In this document: piece after piece, positions 21,993 through 39,972 of the stretch
Layout: each line of letters starts with the position of its first letter
Numbering within the stretch: position 1 is the first letter of the stretch
Sequence record: NC_049827.1
DNA from: Escherichia phage damhaus
Direction: 5' to 3' (one strand)
DNA length: 51,154 bases
The notes under the pieces: model-generated
Told to the model about the DNA's origin: nothing
The model's input: only the letters and a program-made list of their open reading frames with translations
The model's database searches: none
Program-made: the position numbers and the translations under genes

Positions 21993-22081
21993 TATTCATT
22001 CTCCAATAGCATTTTTTGTTAAACGATGATTTAATGATTGTGTATTATACACGCCAAATGGCATTACTCAAAGGTTTTAGA

Positions 22082-24127
22082 ATGATTCCAAACATTGAAA
22101 AGCAAATATCAGCACTTGGTGAAGCGGTAATTAAATCCATTCAGGAGCGATTCACTGTTGGCGATATTGTGCCTTACCCTTACCAGTGCGTTGCATACGC
22201 TGAGATCGCAAAGCGTATGAAAAATTATGAGCATCCATTCTTTGTTAAAGCGTCGGTATCGGCTGGAAAAACATTGATGTTTGCAATGGTTGCTCACCAG
22301 TGCCGGAAAATGGGCTTGAAAATGATGGTCCTTGCTCGCCAGGCTGAGATTGTGGATCAGGATTCTGAAGAGATAACAAATCTTGGCGTGCCGAACTCCA
22401 TCTATTGTGCAGGACTGAAGACAAAAAGCGCATACTTTCCGATCGTTGTTGGTTCTGAGGGAACTGTAGTTAATGGACTGTTTAAAGCGCTTGGCGACTA
22501 TGTTCCTCACGTTATCGGGATTGACGAGTGTCACCAGGTGGATTGGGAAGACCTTGCCGACGCCATAGAGAAAGATGAGTCATTTTTACAAATGACGACG
22601 AAGAAAGGCGAAAAAGTACCAAATCCAGATTATGACATAACAAAGGGAAGCAGGAACAGAAATACAGAGTTCCTGATTGGTGAGGATGGCTTGCCAATGG
22701 AGGGAACAGGCCGCACGCAATACACTGTCATTATCATGGAAATGATGCGACGTTGCAGGAAAGCATACGGTCATGAACTGCGCATCTTTGGTATGACTGG
22801 ATCGGAGTTTCGCGGCGTAGTTCCAATACTGGTAGAAGATAAAAAGCAGAAAGGATTTTGGCGTGAACAGGTTACTAATATTGACACCAACTACCTGATC
22901 AAGTTCGGTTCTGTTGTTCCGACTAATTTTGGCGACGTTGGCGATCTTGGGTATGACCTTTCAGAGTTTGAGGCATCCAGTGAGGATGGCGTTGCAGACT
23001 TTGACGCTAAAACGCTTCGTAGGATGGAACAAAAAATTCATGAAGAAGCGACCATGACAAAGCGCATCATGGCGAAAGTGCACGAGATCTGTAAAAACCG
23101 TAACGGTGTACTTGTGACATGTGCAGGCGAAAGGCACTGTAAAGAGGCAGCGGCAGCATTGCCGCCTGGAACGACTTACAGGATCATTACTGGTAAGACT
23201 GGCGATAACCAGCGCAAGGAGTGGTTGAAAGAAGCATACGAGGGAAAGGTTAAATACATCTTCCAGGTGCAGGCGCTAACTACTGGCGTTAACGTGCCGT
23301 TTTGGGATACGTCTGTTATTCTGCGTAAGATTGGATCTCTTACGTTGCTGATTCAGCTTTTAGGTCGCGGAATGCGACTACTTAAGAAGTGGCATAAGGA
23401 GCAAGGATTCCAGAAGGATGATCATCTAGTCATGGATTTTTCAGGAACGATGGACGAGCTAGGGGAGCTTTATTTTGATCCGATACTGGAACAGGCGCAG
23501 CACCAGAAGCGATTTAGGAACGGTAAAGATCCGAAGCCTTGTCCTGTTTGCGGAACTCTTAACAGCTATTATGCTCGTCGTTGTATGAACGTAGATGAAA
23601 ACGGCAACAGATGCGAGTGGTTCTTTAAATTCAGGACATGTGATGATCAGATTGACCCGCGCACTAAAAAGATTATTCATCGCGGTTGCGGAACGAAGAA
23701 TGATATTGCGGCCAGGGTATGCAGACATTGCGACATGTCATTGATTGACCCTAACGAGAAGTTAAGCGGAAAGCACTACACAAAAAACGACTGGTTCCAG
23801 GTGCAATCTTTCGCGGTTGACATGACGAAAAACCAGAAAGGGATAATATTTAATTATGAGCTTTCCGATGGCATAGATACTTTCAAGGCGAGAGAGATAT
23901 TTTTCCCTGAATCTGAAAGCCAAATTTGTCGCGCAAAATGGCGAAGCGTTGCTCTTAAGCACATACCAGATCGCCGTGTCGCTGGCATGGTCGCGAGCTA
24001 TCGTAATGCACGTAAAATCATGCAATATGTGAATCACATTATGCCACCATCGCGTGTGACTCACCGCAAGACGAGCAAGGGCGAAGATAATTTGTATAAG
24101 AAGGAATTTAATTATGGCAATGACTGA
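22082..24127 (+). CDS. SF2 DNA helicase with C-terminal zinc-finger region
   Basis: Walker A (SAGKT) and DECH box (GIDECHQ); C-terminal CxxC clusters; start at Met23. Confidence 0.75.
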   Translation: MIPNIEKQISALGEAVIKSIQERFTVGDIVPYPYQCVAYAEIAKRMKNYEHPFFVKASVSAGKTLMFAMVAHQCRKMGLKMMVLARQAEIVDQDSEEITNLGVPNSIYCAGLKTKSAYFPIVVGSEGTVVNGLFKALGDYVPHVIGIDECHQVDWEDLADAIEKDESFLQMTTKKGEKVPNPDYDITKGSRNRNTEFLIGEDGLPMEGTGRTQYTVIIMEMMRRCRKAYGHELRIFGMTGSEFRGVVPILVEDKKQKGFWREQVTNIDTNYLIKFGSVVPTNFGDVGDLGYDLSEFEASSEDGVADFDAKTLRRMEQKIHEEATMTKRIMAKVHEICKNRNGVLVTCAGERHCKEAAAALPPGTTYRIITGKTGDNQRKEWLKEAYEGKVKYIFQVQALTTGVNVPFWDTSVILRKIGSLTLLIQLLGRGMRLLKKWHKEQGFQKDDHLVMDFSGTMDELGELYFDPILEQAQHQKRFRNGKDPKPCPVCGTLNSYYARRCMNVDENGNRCEWFFKFRTCDDQIDPRTKKIIHRGCGTKNDIAARVCRHCDMSLIDPNEKLSGKHYTKNDWFQVQSFAVDMTKNQKGIIFNYELSDGIDTFKAREIFFPESESQICRAKWRSVALKHIPDRRVAGMVASYRNARKIMQYVNHIMPPSRVTHRKTSKGEDNLYKKEFNYGND

Positions 24128-24533
24128 TAAAGGCGATTATCTGGAGTTTTACGAAAGAGATCCGACAGATACGCTAAAAGAGGAATCTCACCAGATCGGG
24201 GCGTTTCAATGGTTAACTTATGCTCATCCTGAATTACTGGCATGGCATACGAAAAACGAGGGCGACAAGGGGATCGCCACCGCAATGATGGATCAGCAAG
24301 CTGGGCTTGTTAAGGGCGTAAGTGATTTTATCATCCTGATTGGATTAAAAGGTCGTTACCCGTTCGCGGCAATTGAGATGAAGCGCGTCAATAAGTCCGG
24401 CAAGGGTAAGGCTTCACCAGTCAGCAAGGACCAAAAAGCCTTCTTGCGTCGTGTGCGTGAGCTTGGCGGATTCGCTGCCGTAACATACGGATATAAGCAA
24501 TTCATGATCGCTGTAGAATACATGATGAAATAG
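24114..24533 (+). CDS. VRR-NUC-like PD-(D/E)xK nuclease
   Basis: 139 aa with D...E-x-K pattern (GVSDFIIL...AIEMK). Confidence 0.55.
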   Translation: MAMTDKGDYLEFYERDPTDTLKEESHQIGAFQWLTYAHPELLAWHTKNEGDKGIATAMMDQQAGLVKGVSDFIILIGLKGRYPFAAIEMKRVNKSGKGKASPVSKDQKAFLRRVRELGGFAAVTYGYKQFMIAVEYMMK

Positions 24534-24607: not shown

Positions 24608-25309
24608 ATGAGTAAAGAAACTGAAGTGACATTTGAACAAATAGAACGCGAAACATTCATTGGCAATGCTCTTGCTACTGGTGGTCATTACCAGGCTGTT
24701 AAACCAAATCAATATTTCAAAGTGACTGGCAACCGCTATAACGGCAGCAATACGCCGGACATTGTGCGCGATTTGTGGTCTACTCCGTATGAGCTTGTCG
24801 CATGGATGGAAAGTGAATACGGTGATTATGACATCGACGCGGCTGCAAGCAAAGAAAATGCTGTATGTGAAAAATTCTACAGCAAGGAAACAAATTGCTT
24901 AAAGCGTTGGTGGGGTAGTAACAAGCATATATGGCTTAATCCACCGTACAGCAATATTACGCCATTTGTTAAGAAGGCGATTGAGCAAATGGAGCACAAC
25001 AACCAGATCGACATGCTGTTACCTTGCGACACATCAACAGGATGGTTTTATGAAGCGCAACAGCGCGCAGCGGAAATCATCTGGATCACTGGCGAAGTTT
25101 ACCAGGAAGACGGAACAGAATATTCCCGCACAGGACGCCTTGCGTTTACCTCTGCTCTTACAGGTAAACCAGTGCAGGGCAACAACAAAGGAAGCGTTAT
25201 TTTCATCATGCGCGAACTTAAAGAAGGTGAGCAGCAGAAAACGCGATACGTTAAAATCAGCGACATTTGCCCTTCGGTGGCAGACCGTCGCGCACGGAAA
25301 CGGAGCTAA
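24608..25309 (+). CDS. dam: DNA N6-adenine methyltransferase (T1 Dam-like)
   Basis: 233 aa with DAAAS and NPPYS motifs. Confidence 0.75.
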   Translation: MSKETEVTFEQIERETFIGNALATGGHYQAVKPNQYFKVTGNRYNGSNTPDIVRDLWSTPYELVAWMESEYGDYDIDAAASKENAVCEKFYSKETNCLKRWWGSNKHIWLNPPYSNITPFVKKAIEQMEHNNQIDMLLPCDTSTGWFYEAQQRAAEIIWITGEVYQEDGTEYSRTGRLAFTSALTGKPVQGNNKGSVIFIMRELKEGEQQKTRYVKISDICPSVADRRARKRS

Positions 25310-25625: not shown

Positions 25626-25805
25626 ATGGTTGTTTACGATCCACGCGCTTTTAAAATTGCTCAAGAAGTTTCACGCGAATCTGTTGCTGGCGGTTCGGTT
25701 AACGGCTATCAGTTTGATTGGTCGGCAGCAATGACCTTGCTTAAGGTTGCATATGGTCACGCGCCAATTGAAACAGCGGAGGAATATTATAAGCATGAAG
25801 GTTGA
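25626..25805 (+). CDS. hypothetical small protein (59 aa)
   Basis: Below the ORF-track size cutoff; ATG preceded by the conserved leader ...AAGAGGAAAACAAA. Confidence 0.4.
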   Translation: MVVYDPRAFKIAQEVSRESVAGGSVNGYQFDWSAAMTLLKVAYGHAPIETAEEYYKHEG

Positions 25806-26037
25806 GCAAGGTAGGCAGGCTGTATGGGATCACGCAAAGGAATGCGGGATCGCAGAAGACATATCCAGGATAGCGAAATATTTTGATATTGCTGACATAA
25901 GCATTATCAGCGGCGACAAAATGACATTTCTCAATGAACGCCCGCGCAAGATGCATCGCGTCCCAGCAATACCAACAAAGATTGATTTCAAAGAGGCTAT
26001 GGCGAAAATTCGCGAGCCGCGCAAATACTACAAATGA
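25795..26037 (+). CDS. hypothetical protein
   Basis: Start at Met17 of track ORF with GGAGG RBS. Confidence 0.45.
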   Translation: MKVEQGRQAVWDHAKECGIAEDISRIAKYFDIADISIISGDKMTFLNERPRKMHRVPAIPTKIDFKEAMAKIREPRKYYK

Positions 26038-26133
26038 GGATTATTATCATGTGGCGTTTGTTACTTTTGCCCTTACCTGTTATGATGGCGATCTCTATTG
26101 TATACGTTGTCATAATGAGATAAGGAGAATTTT

Positions 26134-27267
26134 TTGATGAAGCAAATCAAAATCACAGATGAACAATTTATCAATGAGCGCAAGCAGGGAAAGACATATA
26201 AGCAGATCGCTAATGAGTATGGCATGAACGTTCGAAGCATTGAGCGACGTGCGGCACGATTAGCAAAGCAAGGTAAAGTTACAACCATCGGATCGCCTGG
26301 TTTTGGTGTTACTGGAGAATCAAAGCTAATTGATAAAGATGGCAATGTTGTTATGACATGGATTAAGACAAGCAAGGACCGCGAACAGTTAGAAGCATTA
26401 ATGCAGGCCGCTATGGATGCATTTAGCGAAGAAGTTCCGCGACTTGATCCACAGCCAGAATCACAAAAGGATTATAGCGAGACGTTATCACTGTATCCGA
26501 TATTTGACATGCACTTGGGCGCAATGGCGCATAAGCATGAATGCGGCGAGAATTGGGATACAGCAACAGCAGAGCGCGTAATGAATAATTTCATTGATTA
26601 TTCCATCCAGTGCGCGCCGGATAGTGAAAAGGCTGTTTTGCTGATTGGTGGTGATATGCTTCACAGCGACGGACTGGAAGCGGTAACTCCTGCAAGCGGT
26701 CACGTATTAGATCAAGATAGTCGATATGCAAAACTTGTTTATGTTGCTATCCGGTCGGTTCGTCGAGCAATTACAAAGCTGTTATCAAAACACAAAAACG
26801 TCGAGATCCAAATCATTGAAGGCAACCACGACCAAAGCGGTATGATCTGGTTGCGCGCAGCAATGGCGGCAGCATATGAGAATGAGCCGCGAGTGCATGT
26901 TGATGTGTCTCCGCGAGTAGTTCATCACACACAATATGGCAAAACGTTCCTGGCATACCATCACGGGCATACTATCCGCAAACCTGAAACATTGCTCATG
27001 ATGTGCGCGGCAGACTGGCGCGAAGATTTCGGCAATTCAAAAATGATGTATGCTCACGTAGGGCACTGGCATCATCAGACAGTAACTGAAACAAGCCTTG
27101 GCATTGTTGAAGTGCATAGCACTATGGCGGCAAAAGATGCATATGCGGCGCGCGGTGGATGGCGTTCTCGTCGCCGTGCGGCTGTTATTGTTTACGATAA
27201 AGAATACGGCGAAGTCGGGCGATTTATGCATTATCCAGAAATGGCTGATCGAACTTTTAATTATTAA
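26134..27267 (+). CDS. HTH-domain protein fused to calcineurin-like metallophosphoesterase domain
   Basis: N-terminal HTH (TYKQIANEYGMNVRSIERR); phosphoesterase signatures D-x-H, GGDMLHSD, GNHD, GHWHH. Confidence 0.55.
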   Translation: MMKQIKITDEQFINERKQGKTYKQIANEYGMNVRSIERRAARLAKQGKVTTIGSPGFGVTGESKLIDKDGNVVMTWIKTSKDREQLEALMQAAMDAFSEEVPRLDPQPESQKDYSETLSLYPIFDMHLGAMAHKHECGENWDTATAERVMNNFIDYSIQCAPDSEKAVLLIGGDMLHSDGLEAVTPASGHVLDQDSRYAKLVYVAIRSVRRAITKLLSKHKNVEIQIIEGNHDQSGMIWLRAAMAAAYENEPRVHVDVSPRVVHHTQYGKTFLAYHHGHTIRKPETLLMMCAADWREDFGNSKMMYAHVGHWHHQTVTETSLGIVEVHSTMAAKDAYAARGGWRSRRRAAVIVYDKEYGEVGRFMHYPEMADRTFNY

Positions 27268-27295: not shown

Positions 27296-27326
27296 GGGCG
27301 AGGCATTTTGCTTTGCCCTTTTTTTA
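27296..27326 (+). terminator. terminator-like hairpin
   Basis: imperfect GC hairpin followed by TTTTTTT. Confidence 0.4.
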
Positions 27327-27398
27327 TTCCTTTTTGTGCGTTCAATGGTTAGGATACAATCAATTAATTGTTGACTTTTATTTACAGGAGATCTAATC

Positions 27399-37896: not shown

Positions 37897-38078
37897 TTGT
37901 TTACGTTGTGCATGGTGATATTATCTACGACGGTGAATACTATGAGGGCGTTTTCAGTACGTTCGAACAGGCAGAGCATCATGCAAAGAATCTTCCTGAT
38001 TATTACGATAACGTAACAGTCAGAGAGTCAAAAATTGACGATCCAGCATACGAAGGTAACACATGGGATTTCCGATGA
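37893..38078 (+). CDS. hypothetical protein
   Basis: 61-aa ORF, ATGA overlap with upstream gene, GAGGAAG RBS. Confidence 0.5.
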   Translation: MIVYVVHGDIIYDGEYYEGVFSTFEQAEHHAKNLPDYYDNVTVRESKIDDPAYEGNTWDFR

Positions 38079-38614
38079 AAAAATACGAATTTGAACTTTG
38101 GGGAAGCAAATACCATTTTTCCACTAGCAAGCCGATTGTTATTGTTGACCTTGACGGCACGTTATCAGATGGAACGCACCGCTTGCACCTGCTGCCGACA
38201 GAAGATTTGCACCTTACAGAAAGCTGGTCTGAGTTCAACAAAGCGGCTGTTGGCGATTCGCCGATTAAGAGCACGGTTTCAGTGGTTAACGGATTGTGGA
38301 TGTCAGGATTTGCCATCGTTATCCTGACAGGGCGCAGCGATGAGGTGATGGCTGACACCTGCGACTGGTTAAATTATAACGGCATCAAGTACGACGCGTT
38401 AATCATGCGCCGAAAGGAAGATAACCGAAAAGACACGATCATCAAAGAGGAAGTCTTGCGAGCTATCGGACTGGAAAACATTGTGTGCGCTTTTGATGAT
38501 TCGCCGAACGTGGTTAAGCACTTCCGCAGCCTGGGAATCACAACCTATCAGGTCACGGAATACGAAAAGCCACATAATCACATCCAATCGCACGGCGTGG
38601 ATGAATTAAAATAG
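38075..38614 (+). CDS. HAD-superfamily phosphatase (polynucleotide 3'-phosphatase-like)
   Basis: DLDGTL (DxDxT) motif near the N-terminus; start at Met5 overlapping the upstream stop. Confidence 0.6.
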   Translation: MKKYEFELWGSKYHFSTSKPIVIVDLDGTLSDGTHRLHLLPTEDLHLTESWSEFNKAAVGDSPIKSTVSVVNGLWMSGFAIVILTGRSDEVMADTCDWLNYNGIKYDALIMRRKEDNRKDTIIKEEVLRAIGLENIVCAFDDSPNVVKHFRSLGITTYQVTEYEKPHNHIQSHGVDELK

Positions 38615-39187: not shown

Positions 39188-39381
39188 TTCTTGCTATAGC
39201 GCATTCATGCAGTGCGCTATGTTGAGATAACAACATGAGATCATGAAGATGCGAAACTTCGAAAAAATCGTATCCAAAAAGAAGCGATACAGCTACCACG
39301 AGCACCAAGAGATGAATCAACGCTATCGCAATAAGCGCCAGCGCCCAGGTAAACATTCAAGCCGATATGGAGACAACTAAT

Positions 39382-39972
39382 ATGAAAAGAGACATTATCA
39401 TCCTTAACGGACCGCCAGGGGTTGGCAAGGATACGCTTGCGGCATACTTAACGGGCCATCGTTACGCAGCCGTTAAAGCGTCGTTTAAACAGCCTATGTT
39501 TGATATTGCGTTTTCCATGCTTGGCGTTTACCGATATGACGAGTTCATTGATCTGTATAACGACCGCGAGCAGAAAGAAAAGCCTCAAGCAATCTTGCAA
39601 GGCAAGTCGCCTCGCCAGTTCATGATCTGGATTAGCGAAGAAGTTATGAAGCCAGCTTTTGGCGAGCAATATTTCGGAAATCGCATGGTTGAGCAAGTAC
39701 ACGAGATGTACAGAGATTTAGCTGTTGTAATTAGTGATGGCGGATTCCCTGAAGAAATCAAACCGCTCGTTAAGGCAGGCCATGAAGTTCACATTTGCCG
39801 ACTGCATCGCGAAGGCTTCACGTTTGATGGCGATTCACGAAACTATATTGACCTGAGCGGATACCATCACCGCGTAAAACATTACGACTTCACAATGATT
39901 GATGGCGATCAAGAAAAGACTGTTGACGAGATCATCAAAACGGTCCAGTGGAAACACATTAAGATCAAATAG
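39382..39972 (+). CDS. P-loop nucleotide kinase (dNMP kinase-like)
   Basis: GPPGVGKDT Walker A near the N-terminus, a GKDT-type motif as I recall it from phage dNMP kinases; start at Met6. Confidence 0.55.
   Translation: MKRDIIILNGPPGVGKDTLAAYLTGHRYAAVKASFKQPMFDIAFSMLGVYRYDEFIDLYNDREQKEKPQAILQGKSPRQFMIWISEEVMKPAFGEQYFGNRMVEQVHEMYRDLAVVISDGGFPEEIKPLVKAGHEVHICRLHREGFTFDGDSRNYIDLSGYHHRVKHYDFTMIDGDQEKTVDEIIKTVQWKHIKIK

Follow-up and report, generated by a model that had tools for sequence, protein, structure and literature searches.

An HTH-metallophosphoesterase of the T1-like Escherichia phage damhaus, member of a widespread phage family, as a candidate DNA-tethered nuclease

Proteins built on a metallophosphoesterase (MPE) domain act on DNA in cells as well as in phages, and the described systems differ in what accompanies this domain. 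Mre11/SbcD carries a C-terminal capping domain and Rad50-binding helices, while DP1, the small subunit of archaeal PolD and a 3'-5' proofreading exonuclease, has an OB domain and the partner DP2. The P. putida MPE, PdeM, is a small stand-alone MPE nuclease, a ligase-associated Mn2+-dependent ssDNA endonuclease found in an operon context of ligase, Lhr and exonuclease. In phages, T4 gp46/47 has a dual role, in the processing of DNA for replication and recombination and in host-DNA breakdown. Bxb1 gp47, a 255-aa MPE of mycobacteriophage cluster A, is a recombination directionality factor that is tied to the integrase and is required for DNA replication. A10ZJ24 gp48, a DNA nuclease with a counter-defence function, breaks down DNA of linear, circular and genomic form in vitro, and its toxicity depends on the metal motifs; it is needed for phage DNA replication in M. 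tuberculosis (PMC12287305). Here we describe an MPE gene of Escherichia phage damhaus whose product bears an HTH domain at its N-terminus, and compare it with these systems.

The window analysed, a stretch of 51,154 bp, is the complete genome of phage damhaus (Hanrivervirus, Drexlerviridae, T1-like). According to the ORF list and its translation, the gene occupies positions 26137..27267 of the plus strand, stop codon included, and encodes a protein of 376 aa that is 100% identical to 'putative phosphoesterase [Escherichia phage damhaus]' and is named 'DNA repair exonuclease' in RefSeq. The first-pass annotation had started this frame at 26134, which is an in-frame TTG one codon 5' of the ATG; the frame itself is retained, and the start is moved to ATG 26137, the start codon in RefSeq relatives. 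A Shine-Dalgarno AAGGAG, read from the sequence at 26122..26127 (+), lies 9 nt from this ATG and 6 nt from the TTG. The ORF 26134-27267 (+) is uninterrupted and the opposite strand is dense in stops. Downstream of the gene, a terminator scan and the sequence itself reveal a strong intrinsic terminator at 27296..27328 (+; also delimited as 27296-27318), consisting of a 10-bp stem (6 G-C pairs) followed by a T run. It closes the early/middle transcription unit ahead of the lysis cassette, and coliphage T1 has an annotated terminator at the equivalent place, after ORF16. The promoter scan near the gene stayed below shuffled expectation, and the only operator-like or iteron-like repeats found around it were short two-copy matches, as chance expects. 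Two close copies are informative: the Fulano1 gene has about 35 nucleotide differences (96.9% DNA identity) but only 1 amino-acid difference, and the egaa gene, at 97.5% DNA identity, has 2 changed residues. Because these copies vary in DNA and hardly in protein, the ORF is not a chance ORF, and selection on it is, judging from these comparisons, strongly purifying.

The C-terminal two thirds of the protein form the calcineurin-like MPE domain (residues 116-365; 26482..27231, +, from the AlphaFold2 model). With the alignment of the relatives as input, AlphaFold2 returned both an HTH and an MPE β-sandwich, the outcome of the structure prediction that the first-pass annotation had proposed as a check, with a mean pLDDT of 92.8 and high confidence for the MPE fold. 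In this model, a linker that follows helix 82-97 leads into the β-sandwich, in which each MPE motif comes after a strand, at the C-terminal strand ends as in the superfamily fold. The protein carries all five motifs of the superfamily (PF00149 clan; DxH, GDxx(D/H), GNH(D/E), H, GHxH), in agreement with the full motif set claimed earlier, every quoted string of which was found: FDMHLG (D124-x-H126), GGDMLHSDG (171-179), GNHD (229-232), HHGH (275-278) and GHWHH (309-313). Conservation was assessed in an alignment of 144 relatives with 30-90% identity to the damhaus protein. Motif I, IFDMHLG (26500..26520, +), contains D124 and H126, both invariant, and aligns with 'sDWHLG' of T. maritima Mre11. 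Motif II, LIGGDMLHSDG (26641..26673, +), aligns with Mre11 'TGDLLHSRN' and contains the invariant D173 together with H176 and D178, each kept in at least 90% of the relatives. Motif III, IEGNHD (26815..26832, +), in which N230 and H231 are invariant, aligns with 'EGNHD' of Bxb1 gp47. In motif IV, AYHHGH (26953..26970, +), H276 is invariant and H278 near-invariant (at least 90%), and in motif V, HVGHWHH (27055..27075, +), H312 is invariant and H310 is kept in at least 90%. A further set of positions, G69, W75, E135, T184, D192, D194, R196, R252, G268 and D334, is specific to the family and likewise conserved in at least 90% of the relatives. General domain models barely register this domain: the damhaus protein scores 14.1 bits against Pfam Metallophos (E 0.064), under the cut-off of 21.5, and only 26 of 114 relatives match that model at E<=0.01. 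On these profile comparisons, HTH-MPE proteins are a divergent MPE subfamily that is not captured by Pfam. The residues of the metal site are invariant or near-invariant, and enzymatic activity is therefore the selected function; the best reading of the motifs is that the damhaus domain is catalytically competent, a predicted two-metal phosphodiesterase.

The N-terminal part contains two modules. The first is a three-helix HTH domain (residues 8-44; 26158..26268, +), identified from the AlphaFold2 model and from family matches, with helices at residues 8-16, 21-28 and 32-44. Fold comparison of the N-terminal domain found the same three-helix HTH fold and a resemblance to sigma-70 region 4 and to LuxR/GerE HTHs. 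Residues 1-50 are basic (12 K/R vs 5 D/E). The damhaus protein itself reaches 18.2 bits against Pfam HTH_28, under the curated cut-off of 25, and its relatives (n=114) match several HTH families (Sigma70_r4_2, 1.5e-9; GerE, 2.4e-8; HTH_8, 2.6e-7), the family matched changing from one member to another. Together, the model, the fold match and the HTH matches in relatives bear out the earlier assignment of the N-terminal ~50 residues to an HTH, and the string on which that assignment had been based, TYKQIANEYGMNVRSIERR, is present as residues 20-38. The HTH is the least conserved segment of the protein. The second module, located between the HTH and the catalytic domain, consists in the predicted secondary structure of a β-hairpin (residues 56-80) followed by a helix (82-97) and is family-specific (26302..26427, +). 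G69 and W75, both in the hairpin, are the near-invariant positions of this module, and fold comparison of the hairpin-helix module gave no specific match. The HTH probably binds DNA; it could instead serve protein contacts or regulation rather than the tethering of a nuclease.

The affinities of the catalytic domain were sought at the levels of fold and sequence. PolD DP1 exonuclease, Mre11 and SbcD are the best fold matches of the damhaus model. A family profile restricted to the MPE domain, compared with 177,635 distinct PDB sequences, retrieved nothing beyond T. maritima Mre11/SbcD (E 0.08-0.25) and, at E 0.43, the Nuclease MPE of P. putida (PDB 6nvo), and in the former alignment the family consensus 'tDaHLG ... 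lGDfLH' pairs with Mre11 'sDWHLG ... tGDLLH'. Motif II of the damhaus protein is of the Mre11-like form GDxLH. Every one of the sequence matches to nucleases is below significance (E 0.08-1), and a single-sequence phmmer search against the PDB returned only noise. NCBIfam TIGR04123, the PdeM endonuclease model, gives a weak match (E 3.9e-4, with 19.9 bits vs a cut-off of 150). The PPP-type signatures GDxHG, GDxVDRG and GNHE are absent from the damhaus protein. The first-pass annotation had offered two options, a nuclease of the Mre11/SbcD type or a signalling phosphatase; the former gains from the fold matches, the PDB profile search and the GDxLH motif, while the latter loses by the absence of the PPP signatures. 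Fold and weak profile matches thus point to the nuclease branch, although not decisively, and a DNA nuclease of Mre11/SbcD type is the preferred option, ahead of a signalling or protein phosphatase.

The family to which the protein belongs is large. The damhaus protein matches PHROG 704 ('DNA repair exonuclease') over its full length (E 2.5e-151, 505 bits, residues 5-370 against positions 3-389 of the 390 in the profile). By tblastn, relatives are present in 2006 of 50,697 phage records, 1952 of which cover at least 80% of the query, and an exhaustive HMMER search collected 4646 clusters (50% identity) at E<=1e-3 and 1041 at E<=1e-30, with nearly all clustered relatives having lengths of 370-420 aa. 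The phages detected by tblastn include Drexlerviridae, Dhillonvirus-like and Jersey-like siphoviruses, phages of Vibrio, Campylobacter, Rhodobacter and Roseobacter, and the podovirus phiEa1H, and BFVD holds many structural relatives in phages that are still more distant. Coliphage T1 ORF16 and gp38 of Pantoea phage AAS23 are relatives with 57% and 59% identity over the full length, respectively. The gene is reported to be a persistent one in 508 of 522 Drexlerviridae (PMC13164509). The fusion had at first been regarded as an unusual architecture, a view that does not hold given the full-length PHROG match and the numbers of phage records and clusters: about 93% of 150 diverse representatives keep the N-terminal module, and the HTH-MPE fusion is therefore the normal form of the family. 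Gene and family are already catalogued and annotated in phages. The family name 'DNA repair exonuclease' is a prediction, and in our literature search no PHROG 704 member turned up that had been characterised biochemically or genetically. One GenBank record labels a relative 'putative serine/threonine protein phosphatase'. The AAS23 orthologue has been detected in purified virions.

In damhaus, the HTH-MPE gene is the last of a rightward early/middle DNA-metabolism unit that comprises genes for a helicase (22016-24127), a VRR-NUC nuclease (24114-24533) and a Dam methylase (24608-25309), followed by small ORFs and the MPE gene; the terminator and then the holin, endolysin and spanin genes come next. 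Helicase, VRR-NUC, Dam and HTH-MPE gene succeed each other in this order in T1-like phages. Elsewhere in the damhaus genome are encoded a RecE-like exonuclease, Erf, a primase, a second helicase, a dNMP kinase and a PNK (38063-38614). Other phages place the gene differently. In lambdoid E. coli prophages (66% identity) it is found between the antirepressor (ANT) and DnaB genes, 3' of a Lin1244_N replication initiator and 5' of NinB, in the early-right operon, and in T7-like podoviruses the order is DNA polymerase A, a putative gp6-like gene (read as such by eye), Endo VII, HTH-MPE gene, PNKP and dGTP diphosphohydrolase. Copies in bacterial genomes, mostly Proteobacteria, have lysozyme, NinB, NinG, Q and terminase genes as neighbours and, because these are phage genes, lie in prophages. 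For a systematic view, viral loci were grouped into 29 clades at 75% identity, giving 100 neighbours, and about 45 loci with 87 neighbour proteins were sampled from bacterial genomes; no conserved partner gene emerged across either set. Apart from lysis genes, whose recurrence is a position effect, only PNKP turned up repeatedly, a HAD-phosphatase gene that occupies the +1 position in 3 of the 29 clades, including T7-like podoviruses and Webervirus/Sauletekiovirus. Among Drexlerviridae, 508 of 522 genomes have the gene directly 5' of the lysis cassette, and in those that do not have the SH3 gene, PNK and dNMP kinase are the commonest genes just after it (PMC13164509). The neighbours of the HTH-MPE gene are always genes of phage DNA replication, recombination or nucleotide salvage.

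What the analysis shows is how the domains are composed, how strictly the catalytic residues are kept, which fold the model has, where the family occurs and which genes surround it; that the substrate is DNA, that the HTH binds DNA and what the protein does in vivo are inferred. We propose a stand-alone two-metal nuclease that its own HTH tethers to DNA and that acts in the processing of phage DNA ends and/or host DNA breakdown, a reading to which we give a probability of roughly 0.55. In this model, the flexibly linked, basic HTH would keep the enzyme bound to duplex DNA, possibly assisted by the family-specific hairpin-helix module, and would thus replace the tethering to DNA that Mre11 owes to Rad50 and its capping domain, and PolD DP1 to the OB domain and DP2. 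With Mn2+/Mg2+, the MPE domain could then cleave or shorten DNA ends, and this nucleolytic processing would support phage DNA replication and recombination. In virulent phages, an additional breakdown of host DNA might feed nucleotide salvage, a double task like that of T4 gp46/47 and in keeping with the reports on Bxb1 gp47 and A10ZJ24 gp48. Since the gene is also present in early-right operons of temperate phages, indiscriminate destruction of host DNA is unlikely as its general role. A more specific version, which we put forward only tentatively and regard as rather doubtful, is that the HTH-MPE protein is a self-sufficient minimal Mre11 with its own DNA anchor and no Rad50, the enzyme by which T1-like phages break down the host chromosome and carry out recombination-dependent replication. 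On this version, the protein may even travel bound to phage DNA. We know of no ORF to which the host-DNA-degradation function of T1 'gene 2.5' has been assigned. If the minimal-Mre11 version were true, the family would yield the methylated mononucleotides (m6dAMP) that are sensed by Metis and PUA-Cal-HAD in T1-like infections. A link of the family to escape mutants of these two defences was considered and rejected, as the published escapers map to denA of T4/T2/T6 and to no T1-like genes. PUA-Cal-HAD protects against the T1-like phage Bas12, which is the sole link of these defences to T1-like phages.

Other activities are compatible with an MPE domain and have to be weighed against a DNA-tethered nuclease. 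The protein might be a counter-defence phosphodiesterase that degrades cyclic or linear nucleotide messengers (of CBASS, Pycsar, type III CRISPR or Thoeris-like systems) or small phosphodiesters, with an HTH that is regulatory or incidental. Judged by fold scores, small-molecule phosphodiesterases are not cleanly set apart; however, the HTH module is kept in about 93% of relatives, the gene is part of the persistent core of Drexlerviridae and not a variable accessory (PMC13164509), its neighbours serve replication, recombination and salvage, the damhaus protein has no PADLOC match, and the only sequence-level matches in the PDB are DNA nucleases, all of which makes this explanation unlikely. 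We would give an equally small chance to an end-healing enzyme that works with the phage PNKP, as a 2',3'-cyclic phosphodiesterase, as a 3'-phosphatase or by removing blocked ends, to mend tRNA or DNA in which host defence nucleases have made nicks. Such end healing is carried out by the MPE domain of Clostridium thermocellum Pnkp, and the PNKP gene immediately 3' in 3 of 29 clades, the PNK encoded by damhaus (38063-38614) and the frequency of PNK and dNMP kinase as next genes in Drexlerviridae without the SH3 gene (PMC13164509) would fit. Yet this linkage is absent from most clades, in both damhaus and T1 the PNK gene belongs to a different transcription unit at a distance of over 10 kb, no RNA ligase partner was seen at any locus examined, and the HTH suggests duplex DNA over tRNA.

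The resemblance of the N-terminal domain to sigma-70 region 4 and LuxR/GerE HTHs invites the idea of an enzyme-regulator like BirA or NadR, in which the HTH would sit on a phage operator, for instance to set the timing of the neighbouring lysis or late genes, while the MPE domain senses or consumes a small ligand. The position just ahead of the lysis genes in 508 of the 522 Drexlerviridae (PMC13164509) and the lysis or late genes that adjoin the copies in bacterial genomes agree with this, and the low conservation of the HTH would suit phage-specific operators. It is nevertheless improbable: a strong terminator separates the gene from the lysis genes, the lambdoid prophage copies belong to a replication module far from late genes, no repeated operator-like sites occur around the gene, and the invariant catalytic residues mark enzymatic activity as the function under selection. 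A Ser/Thr/Tyr protein phosphatase like lambda NinI (lambda-PPase), which would reprogram phosphoproteins of host or phage, belongs to the same superfamily. The ninI gene of lambda is located in the nin region, which the nin-like position of prophage copies near NinB, NinG and Q parallels, and the GenBank name mentioned above points the same way; both the motifs, among which GDxHG, GDxVDRG and GNHE are missing, and the fold ranking contradict this explanation, and we consider it very improbable.

The damhaus gene itself adds nothing beyond public annotation and is an ordinary, catalogued phage gene. The interest lies in the family, which occurs in about 4% of sequenced phage genomes and in nearly all Drexlerviridae and is strictly conserved while having no Pfam model. 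If its members are DNA-anchored, Rad50-independent Mre11-like nucleases, this would explain end processing and recycling of host DNA in small siphoviruses that have neither SbcCD-type complexes nor a polymerase of their own, and would offer a compact nuclease scaffold for study. The upside is modest: the nuclease for host-DNA breakdown or recombination that is still missing in T1-like phages might be encoded by this core gene of Drexlerviridae.

Compared with the known systems, the HTH-MPE protein combines familiar chemistry with a different arrangement. Mre11/SbcD has no N-terminal HTH, whereas the extra modules of the damhaus protein are all N-terminal; conversely, the damhaus protein is without the capping domain and the Rad50-binding helices, and ends at residue 376 soon after the MPE domain, the last strand of which spans 358-365. 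A Rad50/SbcC gene was found neither in the T1 annotation nor in the region around the gene in aaroes nor among the 100 neighbours from 29 viral clades, and the 87 neighbours from bacterial genomes include a single SMC_N match. Because the capping domain and a Rad50/SbcC partner are both absent, the HTH-MPE protein is not a strict member of the Mre11/SbcD group. PolD DP1 is only 15% identical, and its OB domain and DP2 partner have no counterpart in the damhaus protein; no phage-encoded DNA polymerase is annotated in T1-like phages, as judged from the T1 annotation. PdeM is likewise a stand-alone enzyme and matches weakly around motif III, but the matched stretch covers only about 25-30 residues, PdeM is without an HTH, and the HTH-MPE gene is not part of a ligase, Lhr or exonuclease operon. 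Bxb1 gp47 is without both the HTH and the hairpin-helix module and belongs to PHROG 221 (E 4.5e-116), a family that the damhaus protein does not match at E<=0.01, and damhaus, in contrast to the integrase-linked Bxb1 system, has no integrase. The similarity of the HTH-MPE family to Bxb1 gp47 is marginal (hhalign E 0.0034, motifs III-V only); still, the MPEs of cluster A mycobacteriophages are the closest characterised phage proteins. Within PHROG 704, finally, the damhaus protein is a plain member that shows no difference from the others, T1 ORF16 and the 'putative phosphoesterase' of Drexlerviridae being part of the same family, and the relatives in T1 and AAS23 share its gene position, the last before the terminator and the lysis cassette.

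The PUA-Cal-HAD defence system senses m6-dAMP, a signal that arises from phage-induced degradation of the chromosome, and is protective against the T1-like phage Bas12 (10.64898/2026.01.15.699771). Together, these two properties imply that T1-like phages break host DNA down to mononucleotides. In Webervirus, Sauletekiovirus and some podoviruses the metallophosphoesterase (MPE) gene is directly followed by a PNKP gene and a kinase or dGTPase gene (also PMC13164509), while in damhaus about 11 kb separate the MPE gene from the genes for polynucleotide kinase and dNMP kinase (window 38063-38614 and 39367-39972). Linkage of the MPE gene to PNKP/kinase genes is variable across phages.

Copies of HTH-MPE are also present in lambdoid E. 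coli prophages (loci L002-L005, 8001-9119; 66% identical), in which the gene resides within the replication module in the order cI, cro, Lin1244_N initiator, ANT, HTH-MPE, DnaB helicase and NinB. Among phages, the orthologue gp38 of Pantoea phage AAS23 (L172:30800-31924) is 59% identical and has been found by LC-MS/MS in purified virions (PMC8004638). It was found there despite its predicted role as a DNA-metabolism enzyme, and it may be either packaged in the virion or bound to DNA and co-purifying with it. A further comparison is offered by the metallophosphoesterase gp47 of mycobacteriophage Bxb1 (L090:6021-6788), the alignment of which to the PHROG 221 profile (367 positions) is limited to positions 110-363. 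Because gp47 aligns only from position 110, other PHROG 221 members probably have about 110 additional residues at the N-terminus, an extension that is possibly analogous to the N-terminal module of HTH-MPE.

T1-like copies of the MPE gene are also present in records labelled as Campylobacter phages, 20 of which were returned by the near-DNA search (e.g., Campylobacter phage A143, MG065649), and in one labelled as a Streptococcus phage (P0051, Streptococcus phage MBBL140). These copies are 79-96% identical to the damhaus gene, and the hosts given in the records appear to result from contamination or wrong assignment.

Directly upstream of the MPE gene in the window are two small conserved ORFs of 59 aa (25626-25805) and 96 aa (25747-26037), the latter matching PHROG 2817, which lie in different frames and share about 60 nt. 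The helicase and VRR-NUC genes are located at 22016-24533, where the helicase ORF (703 aa, with a TTG start as called) extends 14 nt into the beginning of the VRR-NUC gene. The two genes are arranged in the same way in the annotation of T1, in which ORF22 (helicase) is followed by ORF21 (VRR-NUC-like).
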